Source: Escherichia phage LQ5
Sequence record: OR677401
Direction: 5' to 3' (one strand)
Length of the DNA: 64,000 nucleotides
Part shown: positions 3,257 through 61,772 of the stretch, piece after piece
Layout of the letters: the number at the start of each line of letters is the position of its first letter
Numbering within the stretch: position 1 is the stretch's first letter
Notes under the pieces: model-generated
Told to the model about the DNA's origin: nothing
Database searches by the model: none
The model's input: the letters and a program-made list of their open reading frames with translations, nothing else
Program-made: the position numbers and the translations under genes

Positions 3257-3267
3257 TTTAAAAAGGT

Positions 3268-4771: not shown

Positions 4772-4900
4772 GAATTATGTGATATTATTACTCTATCATT
4801 AATACCCTCTATTACCAAAGGTTCTTCCCTCAAAGAACCTTTCATAATAGACAAGGTCTATTAATTAAACTTACTTTACTTAATTTTATTTGAGGTGTTT

Positions 4901-5167
4901 ATGTTAGTATTAAAATTAGCTTTTTATGACCCTAAAACCAAGACAACAACTACCAAACGTTGTTCTATTTCATATGAATGTCAATTTGGCGAAGTTGAGA
5001 CTGATGGCGAGCCCTTTATGGCAATTGCCGATAGCACATTCGCTAAACCAAAAATAATTCCACTAGTTAACGCTGCGGCTTATCTGGTTGCTCCTGAAGA
5101 AATGACTTATCATACAATTCAGCACATGGCTAAAGATGATAATGCTCCTGCTGGATTTGTAGTTTGA
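4901..5167 (+). CDS. hypothetical protein
   Basis: ATG at 4901 with GAGG 8 nt upstream; ORF-track start 4895 is GTG. Confidence 0.45.
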   Translation: MLVLKLAFYDPKTKTTTTKRCSISYECQFGEVETDGEPFMAIADSTFAKPKIIPLVNAAAYLVAPEEMTYHTIQHMAKDDNAPAGFVV

Positions 5168-5172
5168 TTTAA

Positions 5173-5246
5173 GGCCCTGTAGCTCAATTGGTTAGAGCAT
5201 CCGGCTCATAACTGGCAGGTTTCCGGTTCAAGTCCGGATGGGGCCA
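5173..5246 (+). tRNA. tRNA with CAT anticodon (Met-type gene; probably the AUA-reading Ile tRNA as in T4); no encoded CCA
   Basis: Hand-folded cloverleaf: acceptor GGCCCTG/TGGGGCC, D stem GCTC/GAGC, anticodon loop CTCATAA, T arm TCCGG-TTCAAGT-CCGGA. Confidence 0.75.
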
Positions 5247-5287
5247 TATTTTGAGAACATAAATACTCTTAGAAATAGGAGATATTT

Positions 5288-5953
5288 ATGTTCCATTACA
5301 CTTATAAAATAACAAACAAAATTAATAATAAAATCTATATAGGTGCCCATTCAACCGAAAATTTGAATGATGCATATTTTGGTTCTGGTAAACTCTTAAA
5401 AAAGGCCCAAGCCAAATATGGTATAGAAAATTTCTCTAAAGAAATATTAGAGTTCTTTGACGATAAAACCTCTATGTTTGAGTCAGAAAAGAATATTGTG
5501 ACTGAAGAGTTTTTAAAGCGCCCTGATGTTTATAATTTGAAATTAGGTGGTGAAGGTGGTTGGGACCATTTAAACACTGAAGAATATTTGGATAAAAAGA
5601 AAGAAGCTTCCTTAAAAGGAGTTGCCGCTTTTAAAACCAGATTTGAGAACGACCCAGACCTTAAAGAAAAATATCGTAAAATGGGTTCAGAAAAGTTTAA
5701 ACAACTTTGGGATAATCCTAAGTATAGAGAGAAATTTTCAAATACTAAATCTTTCTTGGGTAAGACCCATTCAGATGAAACCATAAATAAAATGAAAGAA
5801 TCTCACGCCAGAAATAAACATCAACAAGGTGAAAATAATTCCGGATACGGAAAAATGTGGATTCATTCTTTAGAAGAAAAAGTTTCTAAACGTATTAACA
5901 AAACGGATATTATTCCTGAAGGTTGGAATAAAGGCCGTAAAATAAAATTTTGA
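5288..5953 (+). CDS. GIY-YIG homing endonuclease (SegB-like) within the tRNA cluster
   Basis: N-terminal YTYKITNKINNKIYIGAH motif; Lys-rich NUMOD-like C-terminus; lies between the two tRNA genes as T4 segB does. Confidence 0.75.
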   Translation: MFHYTYKITNKINNKIYIGAHSTENLNDAYFGSGKLLKKAQAKYGIENFSKEILEFFDDKTSMFESEKNIVTEEFLKRPDVYNLKLGGEGGWDHLNTEEYLDKKKEASLKGVAAFKTRFENDPDLKEKYRKMGSEKFKQLWDNPKYREKFSNTKSFLGKTHSDETINKMKESHARNKHQQGENNSGYGKMWIHSLEEKVSKRINKTDIIPEGWNKGRKIKF

Positions 5954-5958
5954 ATTAC

Positions 5959-6033
5959 GTCCCGCTGGTGTAATGGATAGCATACGATCCTTCTAAGTTT
6001 GCGGTCCTGGTTCGATCCCAGGGTGGGATACCA
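5959..6033 (+). tRNA. tRNA-Arg (anticodon TCT), CCA encoded
   Basis: Hand-folded: acceptor GTCCCGC/GTGGGAT, anticodon loop CTTCTAA, T arm CCTGG-TTCGATC-CCAGG, 3' ACCA. Confidence 0.8.
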
Positions 6034-6271
6034 AATGAAGACTATTATATAGTCAAGCCGTCGTATGAAGACTGATTACCAGCATTCACCGGCGCAACAA
6101 ACAAGAAACCGGGTCGCTACCGGTAAGTCGTCGGACTGAAGTTCCCTGAATAAGACCCGACTTTAAGGCGTACATGAGTTGACCTCTTAAAGTCCCTTAT
6201 CTCACAGCTGAAACGGCGCACCGAACACTTGCCTAGCAGGTGGAACCCCGACAAGGTTACCCTAGGTTAAA
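6034..6271 (+). ncRNA. candidate stable small RNA(s) downstream of tRNA-Arg (cf. T4 species 1/2 RNAs)
   Basis: ~240 nt with no plausible + strand ORF, several local hairpins (e.g. ACCGG-gtcgcta-CCGGT), ends at an intrinsic terminator. Confidence 0.3.
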
Positions 6272-6299
6272 GGCCCTTCCGAAAGGTTGGGCCTTTTTT
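6272..6299 (+). terminator. intrinsic terminator GGCCC-(12 nt)-GGGCC + T6
   Basis: Hairpin followed by T-run; identical copy at 6897-6925. Confidence 0.7.
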
Positions 6300-6300
6300 G

Positions 6301-6308
6301 TATAAATA
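6301..6308 (+). promoter_or_regulatory. T4-type late promoter TATAAATA
   Basis: Exact TATAAATA about 28 nt upstream of ORF 6337. Confidence 0.45.
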
Positions 6309-6336
6309 TGTAAGTTAAACTAACCTAGGAAATAAT

Positions 6337-6891
6337 ATGAAACTTTTAAAATATTTGAGTTGGGTACTGTTGGTTCCACTGGATTTTATCTCTATGGTTC
6401 TGGCTGTTATCCTTGCACCATTTGTGGTTCCTTTCCACAATAAAAAGACAGGTAAATTACCGTACGGGTTTGATTGGATGATGACATACGATAATCCAAT
6501 TGACGGTGACAAAGGTCATATTAAACGTTGGGCTAAAATCAGGAAAATGCCAGGTGGTGTTTATCTCCAGAGAGTAGCTTGGCTATGGCGAAATAAAGCT
6601 TATAACTTTGCTTATCATAAACTTGGACGCGATTGTAGTTCGGAATTCCATTATCGTGGTAATCCTGACGTAGAATCAGGTTCTCCTGATAAAGCTCATC
6701 ATGGGTGGCTATGGATGTGGAATGACGACGCCTGGGGTGTATTTGCTTCAGTTCCTTATCTTAAGGTTGGTGGAATCACATTTTACCTTCGAGTGTACTG
6801 TGGCTGGAAGCTTAAAAGTCTTTTGTCTCGTAAAATCCCTAAGGCTATGTTAGCCTTCCACATAAACCCATTCCGGTTCTACAAGAACTGA
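6337..6891 (+). CDS. hypothetical protein with N-terminal transmembrane segment
   Basis: 184-aa ORF flanked on both sides by the same 28-nt terminator hairpin. Confidence 0.6.
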   Translation: MKLLKYLSWVLLVPLDFISMVLAVILAPFVVPFHNKKTGKLPYGFDWMMTYDNPIDGDKGHIKRWAKIRKMPGGVYLQRVAWLWRNKAYNFAYHKLGRDCSSEFHYRGNPDVESGSPDKAHHGWLWMWNDDAWGVFASVPYLKVGGITFYLRVYCGWKLKSLLSRKIPKAMLAFHINPFRFYKN

Positions 6892-6896
6892 TTCTA

Positions 6897-6925
6897 GGCC
6901 CTTCCGAAAGGTTGGGCCTTTTTTT
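6897..6925 (+). terminator. intrinsic terminator, duplicate of 6272-6299
   Basis: GGCCC-ttccgaaaggtt-GGGCC + T7. Confidence 0.7.
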
Positions 6926-6949
6926 GTTTCTAAAAAGTTTAAAAAAGAT

Positions 6950-6989
6950 GTTTACTCTTTCGTAGAACATGATACTATAGACCTATCAA
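6950..6989 (+). promoter_or_regulatory. early-type promoter cassette (GTTTACT + TGATACTATAGACCTATCAA)
   Basis: Conserved box read directly. Confidence 0.6.
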
Positions 6990-7013
6990 AACAACAGTGT
7001 GAAGGAGAGTAAA

Positions 7014-7277
7014 ATGGATAATTATGGTGAAGTGTTTAATTTCTTTATGAAATGTGTTCCGGAAGAATTTGGTGCCACAGTTAACGATATTAAGGTTATC
7101 GGTCCTGAACACCCGGTGTATGAAACCTATGCAGTAATGGGTAATGAAGATGGACAGTGGTATACAATTAAAGTTGTGATTAATATGTTCTCAGCTGAAG
7201 GTTACGCCAAATCGTCTACCAAAGTTTACCATGGTAATGATTTTGATGCAGAAAATTATTTCAATAATATGAAATAA
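7014..7277 (+). CDS. hypothetical protein
   Basis: ATG at 7014 after GAAGGAGAG; ORF-track start 6999 is GTG. Confidence 0.55.
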   Translation: MDNYGEVFNFFMKCVPEEFGATVNDIKVIGPEHPVYETYAVMGNEDGQWYTIKVVINMFSAEGYAKSSTKVYHGNDFDAENYFNNMK

Positions 7278-7280
7278 AAC

Positions 7281-7321
7281 GTTTACATGGGCTCATGATT
7301 AAGATATTATGAGCCCATAAT
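7281..7321 (+). promoter_or_regulatory. GTTTACA followed by perfect 10-bp stem-loop ATGGGCTCAT/ATGAGCCCAT enclosing a -10-like TATTAT
   Basis: Inverted repeat read directly; no T-run. Confidence 0.5.
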
Positions 7322-7335
7322 TTGAGGAGAACATA

Positions 7336-7734
7336 ATGAATATCGAAGATAAAGAAATGCAAGAGTTGTATAATTCATTAACACCTGAACAACAAAAATA
7401 TGCCAAAGAACTAGAGAAAGCTCTTACTTTCAACTTGGCAAAAACTGATTGGGCCGCGATGTATGAAGAAAAAACTAGATTAGAAATTGAAGCTGCTGAG
7501 AGAAATGAATGGGTTGTCGAAACCAAGATTTCTGATGGTGGTTGCTCTGTTGAGGTGTCTGCTGTAATTAAAGGTACCCATGGCGAAAAATCATGGGGCT
7601 GGCATAATGAAGCAAACAAACATATTGTTCTCTCAACGTCAAAAACTTATGGCCAAAGGGTTCCTGTATCTAAAGCTATTATTAAGCAAGCTCAATGGGA
7701 AGCCAATGAAATCTGCCTCGCAAAAATGAAATAA
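7336..7734 (+). CDS. hypothetical protein
   Basis: 132-aa ORF with GAGGAGA RBS. Confidence 0.6.
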   Translation: MNIEDKEMQELYNSLTPEQQKYAKELEKALTFNLAKTDWAAMYEEKTRLEIEAAERNEWVVETKISDGGCSVEVSAVIKGTHGEKSWGWHNEANKHIVLSTSKTYGQRVPVSKAIIKQAQWEANEICLAKMK

Positions 7735-21712: not shown

Positions 21713-22006
21713 ATGGGTATTTTCCGTACAGCGGCTTGTATCCTTATGGCGGGATGTTTAAGCCCTACAGTTTCACTAGCAAATGGTGCCAATGATAAAT
21801 TGATGGATGCATTTGCTAGTAGTGCGATGCCTGTTTATGCGCAAATGAGTAGACCCAGCGTAAAGGCCTCCGAAGACTATTGGGCCTATGTTACGGCTTC
21901 CTGGAAGATTTCAAGTTGTCGGACTATAGAAGCGTGTTCAATTGAAGGTCGGGCCATCGGAGAGCGTTATGTAAAACTAATGAAGGTGGAAGATGAAGTT
22001 CAATGA
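21713..22006 (+). CDS. rI: rI-like lysis-inhibition regulator (periplasmic antiholin)
   Basis: 97 aa as T4 RI; signal-like N-terminus; position after tk. Confidence 0.6.
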   Translation: MGIFRTAACILMAGCLSPTVSLANGANDKLMDAFASSAMPVYAQMSRPSVKASEDYWAYVTASWKISSCRTIEACSIEGRAIGERYVKLMKVEDEVQ

Positions 22007-25270: not shown

Positions 25271-25459
25271 ATGAAGGTCTTTTTATCATATGGAAGACCC
25301 CATAAAACCCGACGTTGGTATCTTGAAGCTGTCTGTAAAGAAACCGGACGTCGAGTCAATATCAAGTACGTGTGCAAACCTACGCCTAAACAGACAAGAC
25401 AATTTGTTAACTGGGCTATAAATGATATACGCTTCCATAATTTTTGGAGCGCAATTTAG
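25271..25459 (+). CDS. small basic protein
   Basis: ATG 25271 right after NTase stop; 62 aa, Lys/Arg-rich. Confidence 0.35.
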   Translation: MKVFLSYGRPHKTRRWYLEAVCKETGRRVNIKYVCKPTPKQTRQFVNWAINDIRFHNFWSAI

Positions 25460-25480
25460 GAACCTTCGGGTTCCTTTTTT
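25459..25480 (+). terminator. intrinsic terminator GGAACC-TTCG-GGTTCC + T6
   Basis: Identical hairpin at 61751-61772. Confidence 0.75.
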
Positions 25481-61750: not shown

Positions 61751-61772
61751 GGAACCTTCGGGTTCCTTTTTT
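61751..61772 (+). terminator. intrinsic terminator GGAACC-TTCG-GGTTCC + T6
   Basis: Identical to 25459-25480. Confidence 0.75.

Follow-up and report, generated by a model that had tools for sequence, protein, structure and literature searches.

Two copies of one terminator hairpin flank a putative portable late-gene cassette in Escherichia phage LQ5 and its relatives

In T4-type phages, variable open reading frames (ORFs) are flanked by PeSLs (promoter-early stem-loops), composites of a stem-loop and an early promoter, and a middle-promoter version has been described as PmSL (Arbiol et al. 2010, PMC2839356; Comeau et al. 2014, PMC4122927). In these intergenic composites the stem-loop terminator adjoins an early (sigma70-like or T4 early) or middle promoter, and a Shine-Dalgarno sequence and a start codon come next. 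PeSL mini-circles have been detected experimentally, and patches of homology of <50 bp are said to be enough for recombination in T4 (PMC2839356). Accessory genes of another kind, the morons (Hendrix et al. 2000), are thought to arrive by illegitimate recombination, as summarised in PMC2839356, while gene replacement at the T-even internal-protein (IP) loci (Repoila et al. 1994) is described in PMC2839356 and PMC4122927. Here, we analysed a stretch of 64,000 nucleotides (nt) from Escherichia phage LQ5 (sequence record OR677401; hereafter the window), a T4-like phage of the genus Dhakavirus (JS98/QL01/WG01 group), in which a gene of 184 amino acids (aa), named gene B, lies between two identical hairpins. 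We consider it probable that these hairpins are two copies of one terminator, and that the hairpin, late promoter, gene and second hairpin form a portable cassette for which the terminator serves as the recombination joint.

The exact 22-mer GGCCCTTCCGAAAGGTTGGGCC occurs in the whole window only at positions 6272–6293 and 6897–6918, both on the + strand, and a degenerate hairpin pattern search of the window returned the same two sites. By chance the 22-mer would not be expected at all, as it was absent from 100 shuffles even with three mismatches allowed. Together with a flanking A and the T-run, the repeat reaches 29 nt at 100% identity in direct orientation (6271–6299 and 6896–6924) with a spacing of 625 nt. 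The sequence-only reading, an earlier inspection of this DNA, had placed a repeated element on either side of a 184-aa gene, and both parts of that description hold: the element is an exact 29-nt repeat consisting of a 22-nt hairpin and a T-run, not expected by chance, and gene B is an ORF of 184 aa with an ATG start at 6337–6891 on the + strand.

Each copy is predicted to fold into a 6-bp stem, a 2×2 internal loop of U·U mismatches, two C-G pairs and a GAAA tetraloop, followed by U6 in copy 1 (6272–6299 with its T6) and U7 in copy 2 (6897–6925 with its T7), with folding energies of −17.8 and −16.0 kcal/mol and z-scores of −3.1 and −3.3, respectively. A consensus terminator scan reported neither hairpin because of the internal loop, and folding was used in its place. 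Both copies show the layout of an intrinsic terminator, a G+C-rich stem-loop followed by a U-tract on the coding strand at the 3′ end of a transcription unit, with copy 1 lying 3′ of the tRNA/rnaD unit and copy 2 beginning 5 nt past the stop codon of gene B. The stems covary across genera, being GGCCC/GGGCC in Dhakavirus, GCCCC/GGGGC in Mosigvirus and GCCCCGACC/GGTTGGGGC in T4; the T4 hairpin has G·U and A-U pairs where Dhakavirus has U·U mismatches, and the hairpin of phage QL01 is a G·U variant. The element is also annotated as a terminator in several deposited genomes, including the old T4 record X03016 (“pot. terminator”). Terminator activity of both hairpins is thus predicted from the folding energy, the run of six to seven U residues, the covarying stem and the annotations in records.

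Between copy 1 and gene B, the T4-type late promoter consensus TATAAATA stands at 6301–6308 on the + strand, 28 nt upstream of the start codon, and a Shine-Dalgarno sequence lies between this motif and the ORF. The same motif directly follows the hairpin in the cassettes of Mosigvirus, VR20 and JS98, and we predict that it acts as a late promoter; promoters of this T4 type have the motif at about −10 and depend on gp55/gp33 for transcription. Copy 1 marks the left boundary of the cassette. On the other side, copy 2 forms the right boundary, at which the alignment with the Mosigvirus cassette ends, and is followed by the early promoter of the e.8 homologue (GTTTAC-17 nt-TACTAT, 6950–6978, + strand), one of 12 copies of an early-promoter repeat in the window, and by the e.8 homologue itself (7014–7277, + strand), which clusters with T4 e.8, matches PHROG 2678 and is the conserved right neighbour of the insertion site.

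The region 5900–7300 matches 575 phage records, all of them Tevenvirinae, with top identities of 93–97%. Among 62 matching records, together with loci whose sequence was read directly, the rnaC/e.8 locus is highly polymorphic and takes at least seven configurations; this polymorphism extends over about 45 Dhakavirus genomes. The sequence-only reading had proposed looking in relatives for an empty site with a single hairpin, and such a site exists, with both flanks as predicted, in Salmonella phage ABTNLS3 and Escherichia phage FB, both of the genus Dhakavirus: the left flank of copy 1 is followed by one hairpin and then by the right flank of copy 2, and the two blastn alignments of the empty site to the window share an overlap of 31 nt that is the repeat. 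The arrangement of the window, hairpin, late promoter, B and hairpin, is found in IME540, LHE83, PSD9, MX01 and JS10. An A-type gene precedes B in QL01, WG01, E33, UGJNEcP3/4 and 005 (hairpin, late promoter, A, B, hairpin), and in PSD2002, fDHCT2 and IME341 the A gene is followed by a 3′ remnant of B before the second hairpin. JS98, IME281, AnYang, KIT01 and five more carry hairpin, late promoter, B and hairpin followed by another late promoter and a gene A″; only hairpin, late promoter and A″ are present in IME08, which was read directly, and in C6, CLB_P2, dhaeg, dhabil and SHP1, which were assigned by hit span only. VR5 represents further deletion derivatives. IME08 and JS98 constitute a second empty/filled pair for B, in which the duplicated segment comprises the hairpin, the T-run and GTATAAATA. 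The boundaries of the insertions or deletions fall inside the repeat at the rnaC/e.8 locus, in the IME08/JS98 pair and at a second locus, behind the gene rI of Mosigvirus.

At that second locus, a homologue of B with 75% aa identity lies directly after the lysis inhibition gene rI in Mosigvirus LF82-3, ~16 kb from the tRNA region, between two hairpins of the Mosigvirus variant and with TATAAATA immediately after the first. A blastn comparison of LF82-3 with the window aligned exactly 6271–6924 at 72% nt identity, a segment that opens one base ahead of hairpin 1 and closes with the last T of the run behind hairpin 2; the flanks are unrelated. The rI locus is filled in 23 records; the remainder among those listed, including RB69, match as two pieces spanning only 248 nt and therefore have a single hairpin at rI, and the single-hairpin junction was seen explicitly in Av-05. 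A cassette at two non-homologous loci must have been relocated at least once. The rI gene of the window (21713–22006) is not followed by a hairpin and overlaps the next ORF.

The origin of copy 1 can be traced in T4, where the gene order is tRNA-Arg, rnaD, rnaC and e.8. The sequence downstream of T4 rnaC is ~90% identical to Dhakavirus and holds the hairpin GCCCCGACCGAAAGGTTGGGGC followed by T5, 51 nt past the annotated 3′ end of rnaC. The corresponding elements of the window, all on the + strand, are tRNA-Arg (TCT) at 5959–6033, which is the final tRNA of a small tRNA cluster (ARAGORN; Rfam tRNA, 46.5 bits); a homologue of T4 rnaD (species 2 RNA) at approximately 6101–6225, placed by the T4 annotation and by alignment with T4, ABTNLS3, QL01, LF82-4 and IME540; and, at 6226–6271, the conserved trailer that in T4 and relatives runs from rnaC to the terminator and has ~90% identity to that of T4. 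A single homologous hairpin follows the rnaC trailer in T4, in Mosigvirus LF82-4 and in VR25, which makes one hairpin the ancestral state at this site; the downstream genes begin straight after it in LF82-4 and VR25, and T4 has ~210 nt of non-coding sequence between it and e.8. By position and sequence, copy 1 is the predicted ancestral intrinsic terminator of the tRNA/rnaD/rnaC transcription unit. It matches the T4 rnaC-operon terminator in both respects, but differs in that the hairpin is duplicated in the window, has two U·U mismatches in place of the G·U and A-U pairs of T4, and has no rnaC ahead of it. The two ends of the cassette can be told apart in IME341 and 04086, where the T4/Mosigvirus variant stands upstream and the Dhakavirus variant downstream; therefore, it is copy 2 that moves with the cassette, whereas copy 1 goes together with the rnaC flank.

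As a separate observation on this flank, rnaC itself (species 1 RNA, ~146 nt) is cleanly absent from the window and from IME540, with the junction at 6225/6226 in the alignment, and both retain rnaD, the rnaC trailer and the terminator; rnaC is present in ABTNLS3, QL01, T4 and LF82-4. An Rfam scan of 4800–7400 returned two tRNAs only and no family for the hairpin or the rnaD-like RNA.

We propose that the ~30-nt terminator, comprising the hairpin and T-run and in some genomes also GTATAAATA, would serve as portable homology. Recombination between the copy at a cassette end and a resident copy would insert the unit, recombination between the two flanking copies would delete it, and the outcome would be one hairpin at empty sites and two at filled sites. 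The route may be an excised circle that re-integrates at a resident terminator, or an unequal exchange between co-infecting genomes; this pathway and its circular intermediate are suggested by analogy with PeSL cassettes, and the direction of individual events, gain or loss, is likewise conjectural. In the filled state, copy 1 would stop transcription of the early/middle tRNA unit, the late promoter would drive B, and copy 2 would end the B transcript before the early promoter of e.8. Given that each copy would be a terminator and the cargo has its own putative promoter, the cassette could land without disturbing neighbouring early transcription.

Several observations weigh against this proposal. 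Terminator and late-promoter activity are both predictions, and the window shows no excess of TATAAATA (6 found against 7.1 expected), so the late-promoter call rests on position and on conservation in homologous cassettes. The empty sites of Dhakavirus and Mosigvirus fit deletion between the repeats as well as insertion. In VR20, whose empty counterpart is VR25, the cassette is located at the rnaC terminator but closes with another 3′ hairpin, GCCCGCATTGCGGGC, and the repeat is just the 13 nt GGGCTTTTTTATA; VR5 carries the gene without a second hairpin copy; and the flanks of the gene are unrelated in STP4-a, PG7, RB43, Miro and FelixO1. Relatives that carry the gene with a single flanking hairpin or with unrelated flanks are what the sequence-only reading had named as speaking against it, and they occur (VR20, VR5, STP4-a, PG7 and RB43) alongside others in which the gene is bracketed. 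Because some relatives carry the gene without an identical bracket, the bracket does not belong to the gene family as such, and as a general trait of this family, DUF7338, it is ruled out by the flanks of 45 IMG/VR loci, where a bracket was found only in Dhakavirus (27-nt repeat) and VR20 (13 nt). This hairpin is also a presumed terminator at sites for which no cassette is known, as at rI in most Mosigvirus genomes, and a third identical Dhakavirus hairpin, outside the window, has convergent genes on either side of it (the uvsY side and uvsW.1/uvsW) and is probably a two-way terminator there.

The view that the direct repeats mark an insertion, put forward in the sequence-only reading, draws support from the empty sites and the second locus, but an empty site alone would be left equally by a deletion. 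If only losses occurred, the two-hairpin cassette would be old, the single-hairpin alleles of the ABTNLS3, FB, IME08 and RB69 types would be deletions or slippage products, and there would have been no recent insertion. A precise deletion between the 29-nt repeats would leave exactly the observed junction, and the divergence of B between genera (72% nt identity) is similar to, or slightly less than, that of core genes of the tk region (~66–67%), from which it follows that the cassette is not a recent inter-genus transfer. We nevertheless regard a history of losses only as unlikely, since the cassette occupies two non-homologous loci in two genera and must have relocated at least once, the rnaC site has a single hairpin in other genera (T4, LF82-4 and VR25), the rI site is filled in only the 23 records mentioned and empty in the rest of those listed, and the position of B relative to A-type genes varies within the locus (A-B versus B|A″). 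Another explanation dispenses with cassettes and takes the hairpin to be a self-spreading element resembling repetitive extragenic palindromes or miniature inverted-repeat transposable elements, which would seed intergenic sites whatever the cargo, the bracket being a coincidence of two independent arrivals. The hairpin family is indeed widespread: it occupies 1257 sites across 744 phage records, genomes have from 1 to 4 or more copies, and the loci are unrelated and include the Dhakavirus site near uvsW.1; an identical 18-nt core recurs in unrelated IMG/VR contigs. However, every T-even copy examined is oriented as a terminator, has a T-run and closes a transcription unit at its 3′ end, no polymorphism for insertion of a solo hairpin was seen, the gene and one hairpin always being gained or lost together, and the homology between Mosigvirus and Dhakavirus is a single hairpin-gene-hairpin block; we judge independent arrivals very improbable.

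Very improbable in our estimate, too, is a hairpin that is more than passive homology and acts as the recognition site of a dedicated nuclease or recombinase, which would amount to an integron-like, site-specific late-gene cassette system in virulent T-even phages operating between rnaC, rI and other terminators; behind this idea stands the unusual conservation of its sequence, namely the GAAA loop, the two U·U mismatches and the 18-nt core that recurs with covarying outer pairs in unrelated phage contigs. Repetition of the hairpin could also have no role in recombination, the same optimal terminator having arisen by convergence or its identity being kept by functional selection. Stable GNRA and UUCG tetraloop hairpins do recur as terminators in the window and the core motif recurs in unrelated phages, but convergence would not be expected to produce 29 identical nt that take in the T-run and a flanking base, and the empty-site junctions at two loci fall precisely within the repeat; we give this explanation hardly any credit. 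The last candidate, a GIY-YIG, SegB-like homing endonuclease gene between tRNA-Met and tRNA-Arg (5288–5953), might drive the polymorphism via co-conversion of flanks, as it lies ~320 nt ahead of copy 1, varies in presence from relative to relative and belongs to a class cited as a source of exchange in such regions (PMC4122927). The cassette is found both with it (window, IME540, LHE83 and AnYang) and without it (QL01, JS98 and MX01), and co-conversion would cover the spread of alleles, yet leaves both the duplication of the hairpin and the second, Mosigvirus locus unexplained; we rejected this explanation, to which we assign next to no probability, as presence of the endonuclease does not track the state of the cassette.

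The portable cassette joined at its terminator, which we favour, resembles PeSL and PmSL units in several ways. In both, a short repeated terminator-promoter composite lies in hyperplastic regions, the boundaries of indels or replacements of accessory ORFs fall at the repeats, the cargo is transcriptionally insulated, and homologous recombination over <50 bp with excision and integration of a circle is the proposed route. The repeated motif of the hyperplastic region has its counterpart here in the two copies of the window and in a third at another site of Dhakavirus genomes. Copy 2 with the early promoter of e.8 (GTTTAC N17 TACTAT) fits the PST/T4-type description (PMC4122927), and the ancestral junction, the rnaC terminator followed by the e.8 early promoter, likewise fits the description of a PeSL. 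By contrast, the 5′ hairpin of the cassette is coupled to the late promoter motif TATAAATA and has no −35/−10 early promoter; the shared homology is roughly the terminator alone (29 nt), or the terminator plus TATAAATA in JS98-type genomes; and the hairpin, which comes from the terminator of the rnaC operon, is specific and highly conserved, in contrast to the variable stem-loops described for PST/T4. No late-promoter version of PeSL turned up in a full-text search, and the term “late promoter” is absent from PMC2839356 and PMC4122927.

Like a moron, as far as morons are summarised in PMC2839356, the unit consists of one accessory gene that has a promoter and a terminator to itself, both predicted, and stands between genes that are adjacent in relatives, and TATAAATA, the gene and the hairpin with T7 are together absent from ABTNLS3 and FB. 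It differs in that the regulatory sequences of a moron are not its vehicle of mobility, whereas here the terminator would be the recombination joint, and in that the phage is virulent, with no prophage expression. The likeness to IP loci, as these are portrayed in the two articles cited for them, lies in gene replacement at a fixed locus bounded by conserved regulatory or leader sequences and in the A-type genes of relatives; the cargo in the window is not IP-like, however, and the site is downstream of rnaC, outside the two classical IP loci.

A literature search on JS98, JS10 and IME08 returned nothing relevant to this locus, which probably provides a clear, apparently undescribed example of terminator-mediated shuffling of autonomous late-gene cassettes, the general principle being already published. 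Read in this way, it would show in a clean natural case how accessory genes are acquired, lost and rearranged in large virulent phages with no harm to neighbouring transcription, with one conserved ~30-nt terminator acting as insulator and recombination joint at once. The occurrence of the same cassette at two unrelated loci, each with empty and filled alleles, in two genera goes beyond the pairwise comparisons behind the PeSL model, which would be extended to late-promoter units. Phages with empty, filled and differently filled sites are already in culture collections and make a directly testable system. The practical value is moderate, in that the cassette may account for the mosaicism that distinguishes therapeutic isolates of Dhakavirus and Mosigvirus and points to a natural “landing pad” that engineering could use.

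Gene B matches Pfam DUF7338 over residues 1–183 of 184 (E = 3.8e-63; 212.9 bits against a cutoff of 27) and PHROG 2143 (E = 1.2e-79). Its AlphaFold2 model (predicted local distance difference test, pLDDT, 93) is confident and shows a long N-terminal helix at residues 2–33, a small helical region and a five-stranded sheet, and B is predicted to be a membrane protein with an N-terminal transmembrane helix. No relative of known function was found by NCBIfam, by a sequence profile search of the PDB (nothing significant) or by structure comparison, and a literature search found no papers on DUF7338; the labels “holin” and “envelope protein” in a few deposited records of B homologues are unsupported annotations that we did not adopt. 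Homologues are present in many Straboviridae genera, in Felixounavirus and in jumbo phages. The DUF7338 gene lies in or beside tRNA arrays, always on the same strand, in 20 of the 35 IMG/VR loci examined, which include Felixounavirus, Karamvirus and ~237-kb jumbo phages with only ~34% protein identity. The IMG/VR record of Av-05 (120,938 bp) also has a Felixounavirus-like DUF7338 gene embedded among 13 tRNA genes, and this record may be a chimeric or mixed assembly.

The A-type genes of relatives, absent from the window, encode 154–205 aa, belong to PHROG 2280, have a putative late promoter and start with MKTYNEFL(T/N)E. This start resembles the internal-protein leaders MKTYQEFITE and MKSYQEFIAE of the window and the T4 capsid-targeting leader; the rnaC/e.8 site may, judging from these leaders, be an extra internal-protein locus in relatives. 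As to the endonuclease gene, it is missing in ABTNLS3, PSD2002 and QL01, where tRNA-Met and tRNA-Arg are adjacent. The exact 18-nt core of the hairpin, CCCTTCCGAAAGGTTGGG, including the two T·T mismatches, occurs in ~20 contexts outside T-even phages in IMG/VR; across 35 distinct IMG/VR contexts with the core, both outer pairs are kept in 33 and a T-rich tail in 30.

A second duplicated terminator, noted in the sequence-only reading at 25459 and 61751, proved real. The hairpin GGAACCTTCGGGTTCC (0.02 occurrences expected) is part of a 30-nt repeat with 97% identity, located at 25459–25480 and 61751–61772 on the + strand, and has the form GGAACC-UUCG-GGUUCC with T6 and GG after the stem. Its copies are 36 kb apart and bracket nothing; both lie in the same arrangement between a stop codon and a GTTTAC-N17-TAxxAT early promoter, and by these predicted elements the pair are ordinary PeSL-type junctions of terminator and early promoter. 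In its + direction the window runs from the internal-protein/tRNA region to e.8, e, tk and rI, and it holds 12 copies of a 63-nt early-promoter element (GTTTAC...GATACTATAGACCTATCAA) at 3262, 3829, 6944, 12218, 14990, 15693, 18504, 22411, 25494, 26894, 56655 and 57604, together with five or six copies of the internal-protein leader repeat family (ATGAAAACTTATCAAGAATTTAT).

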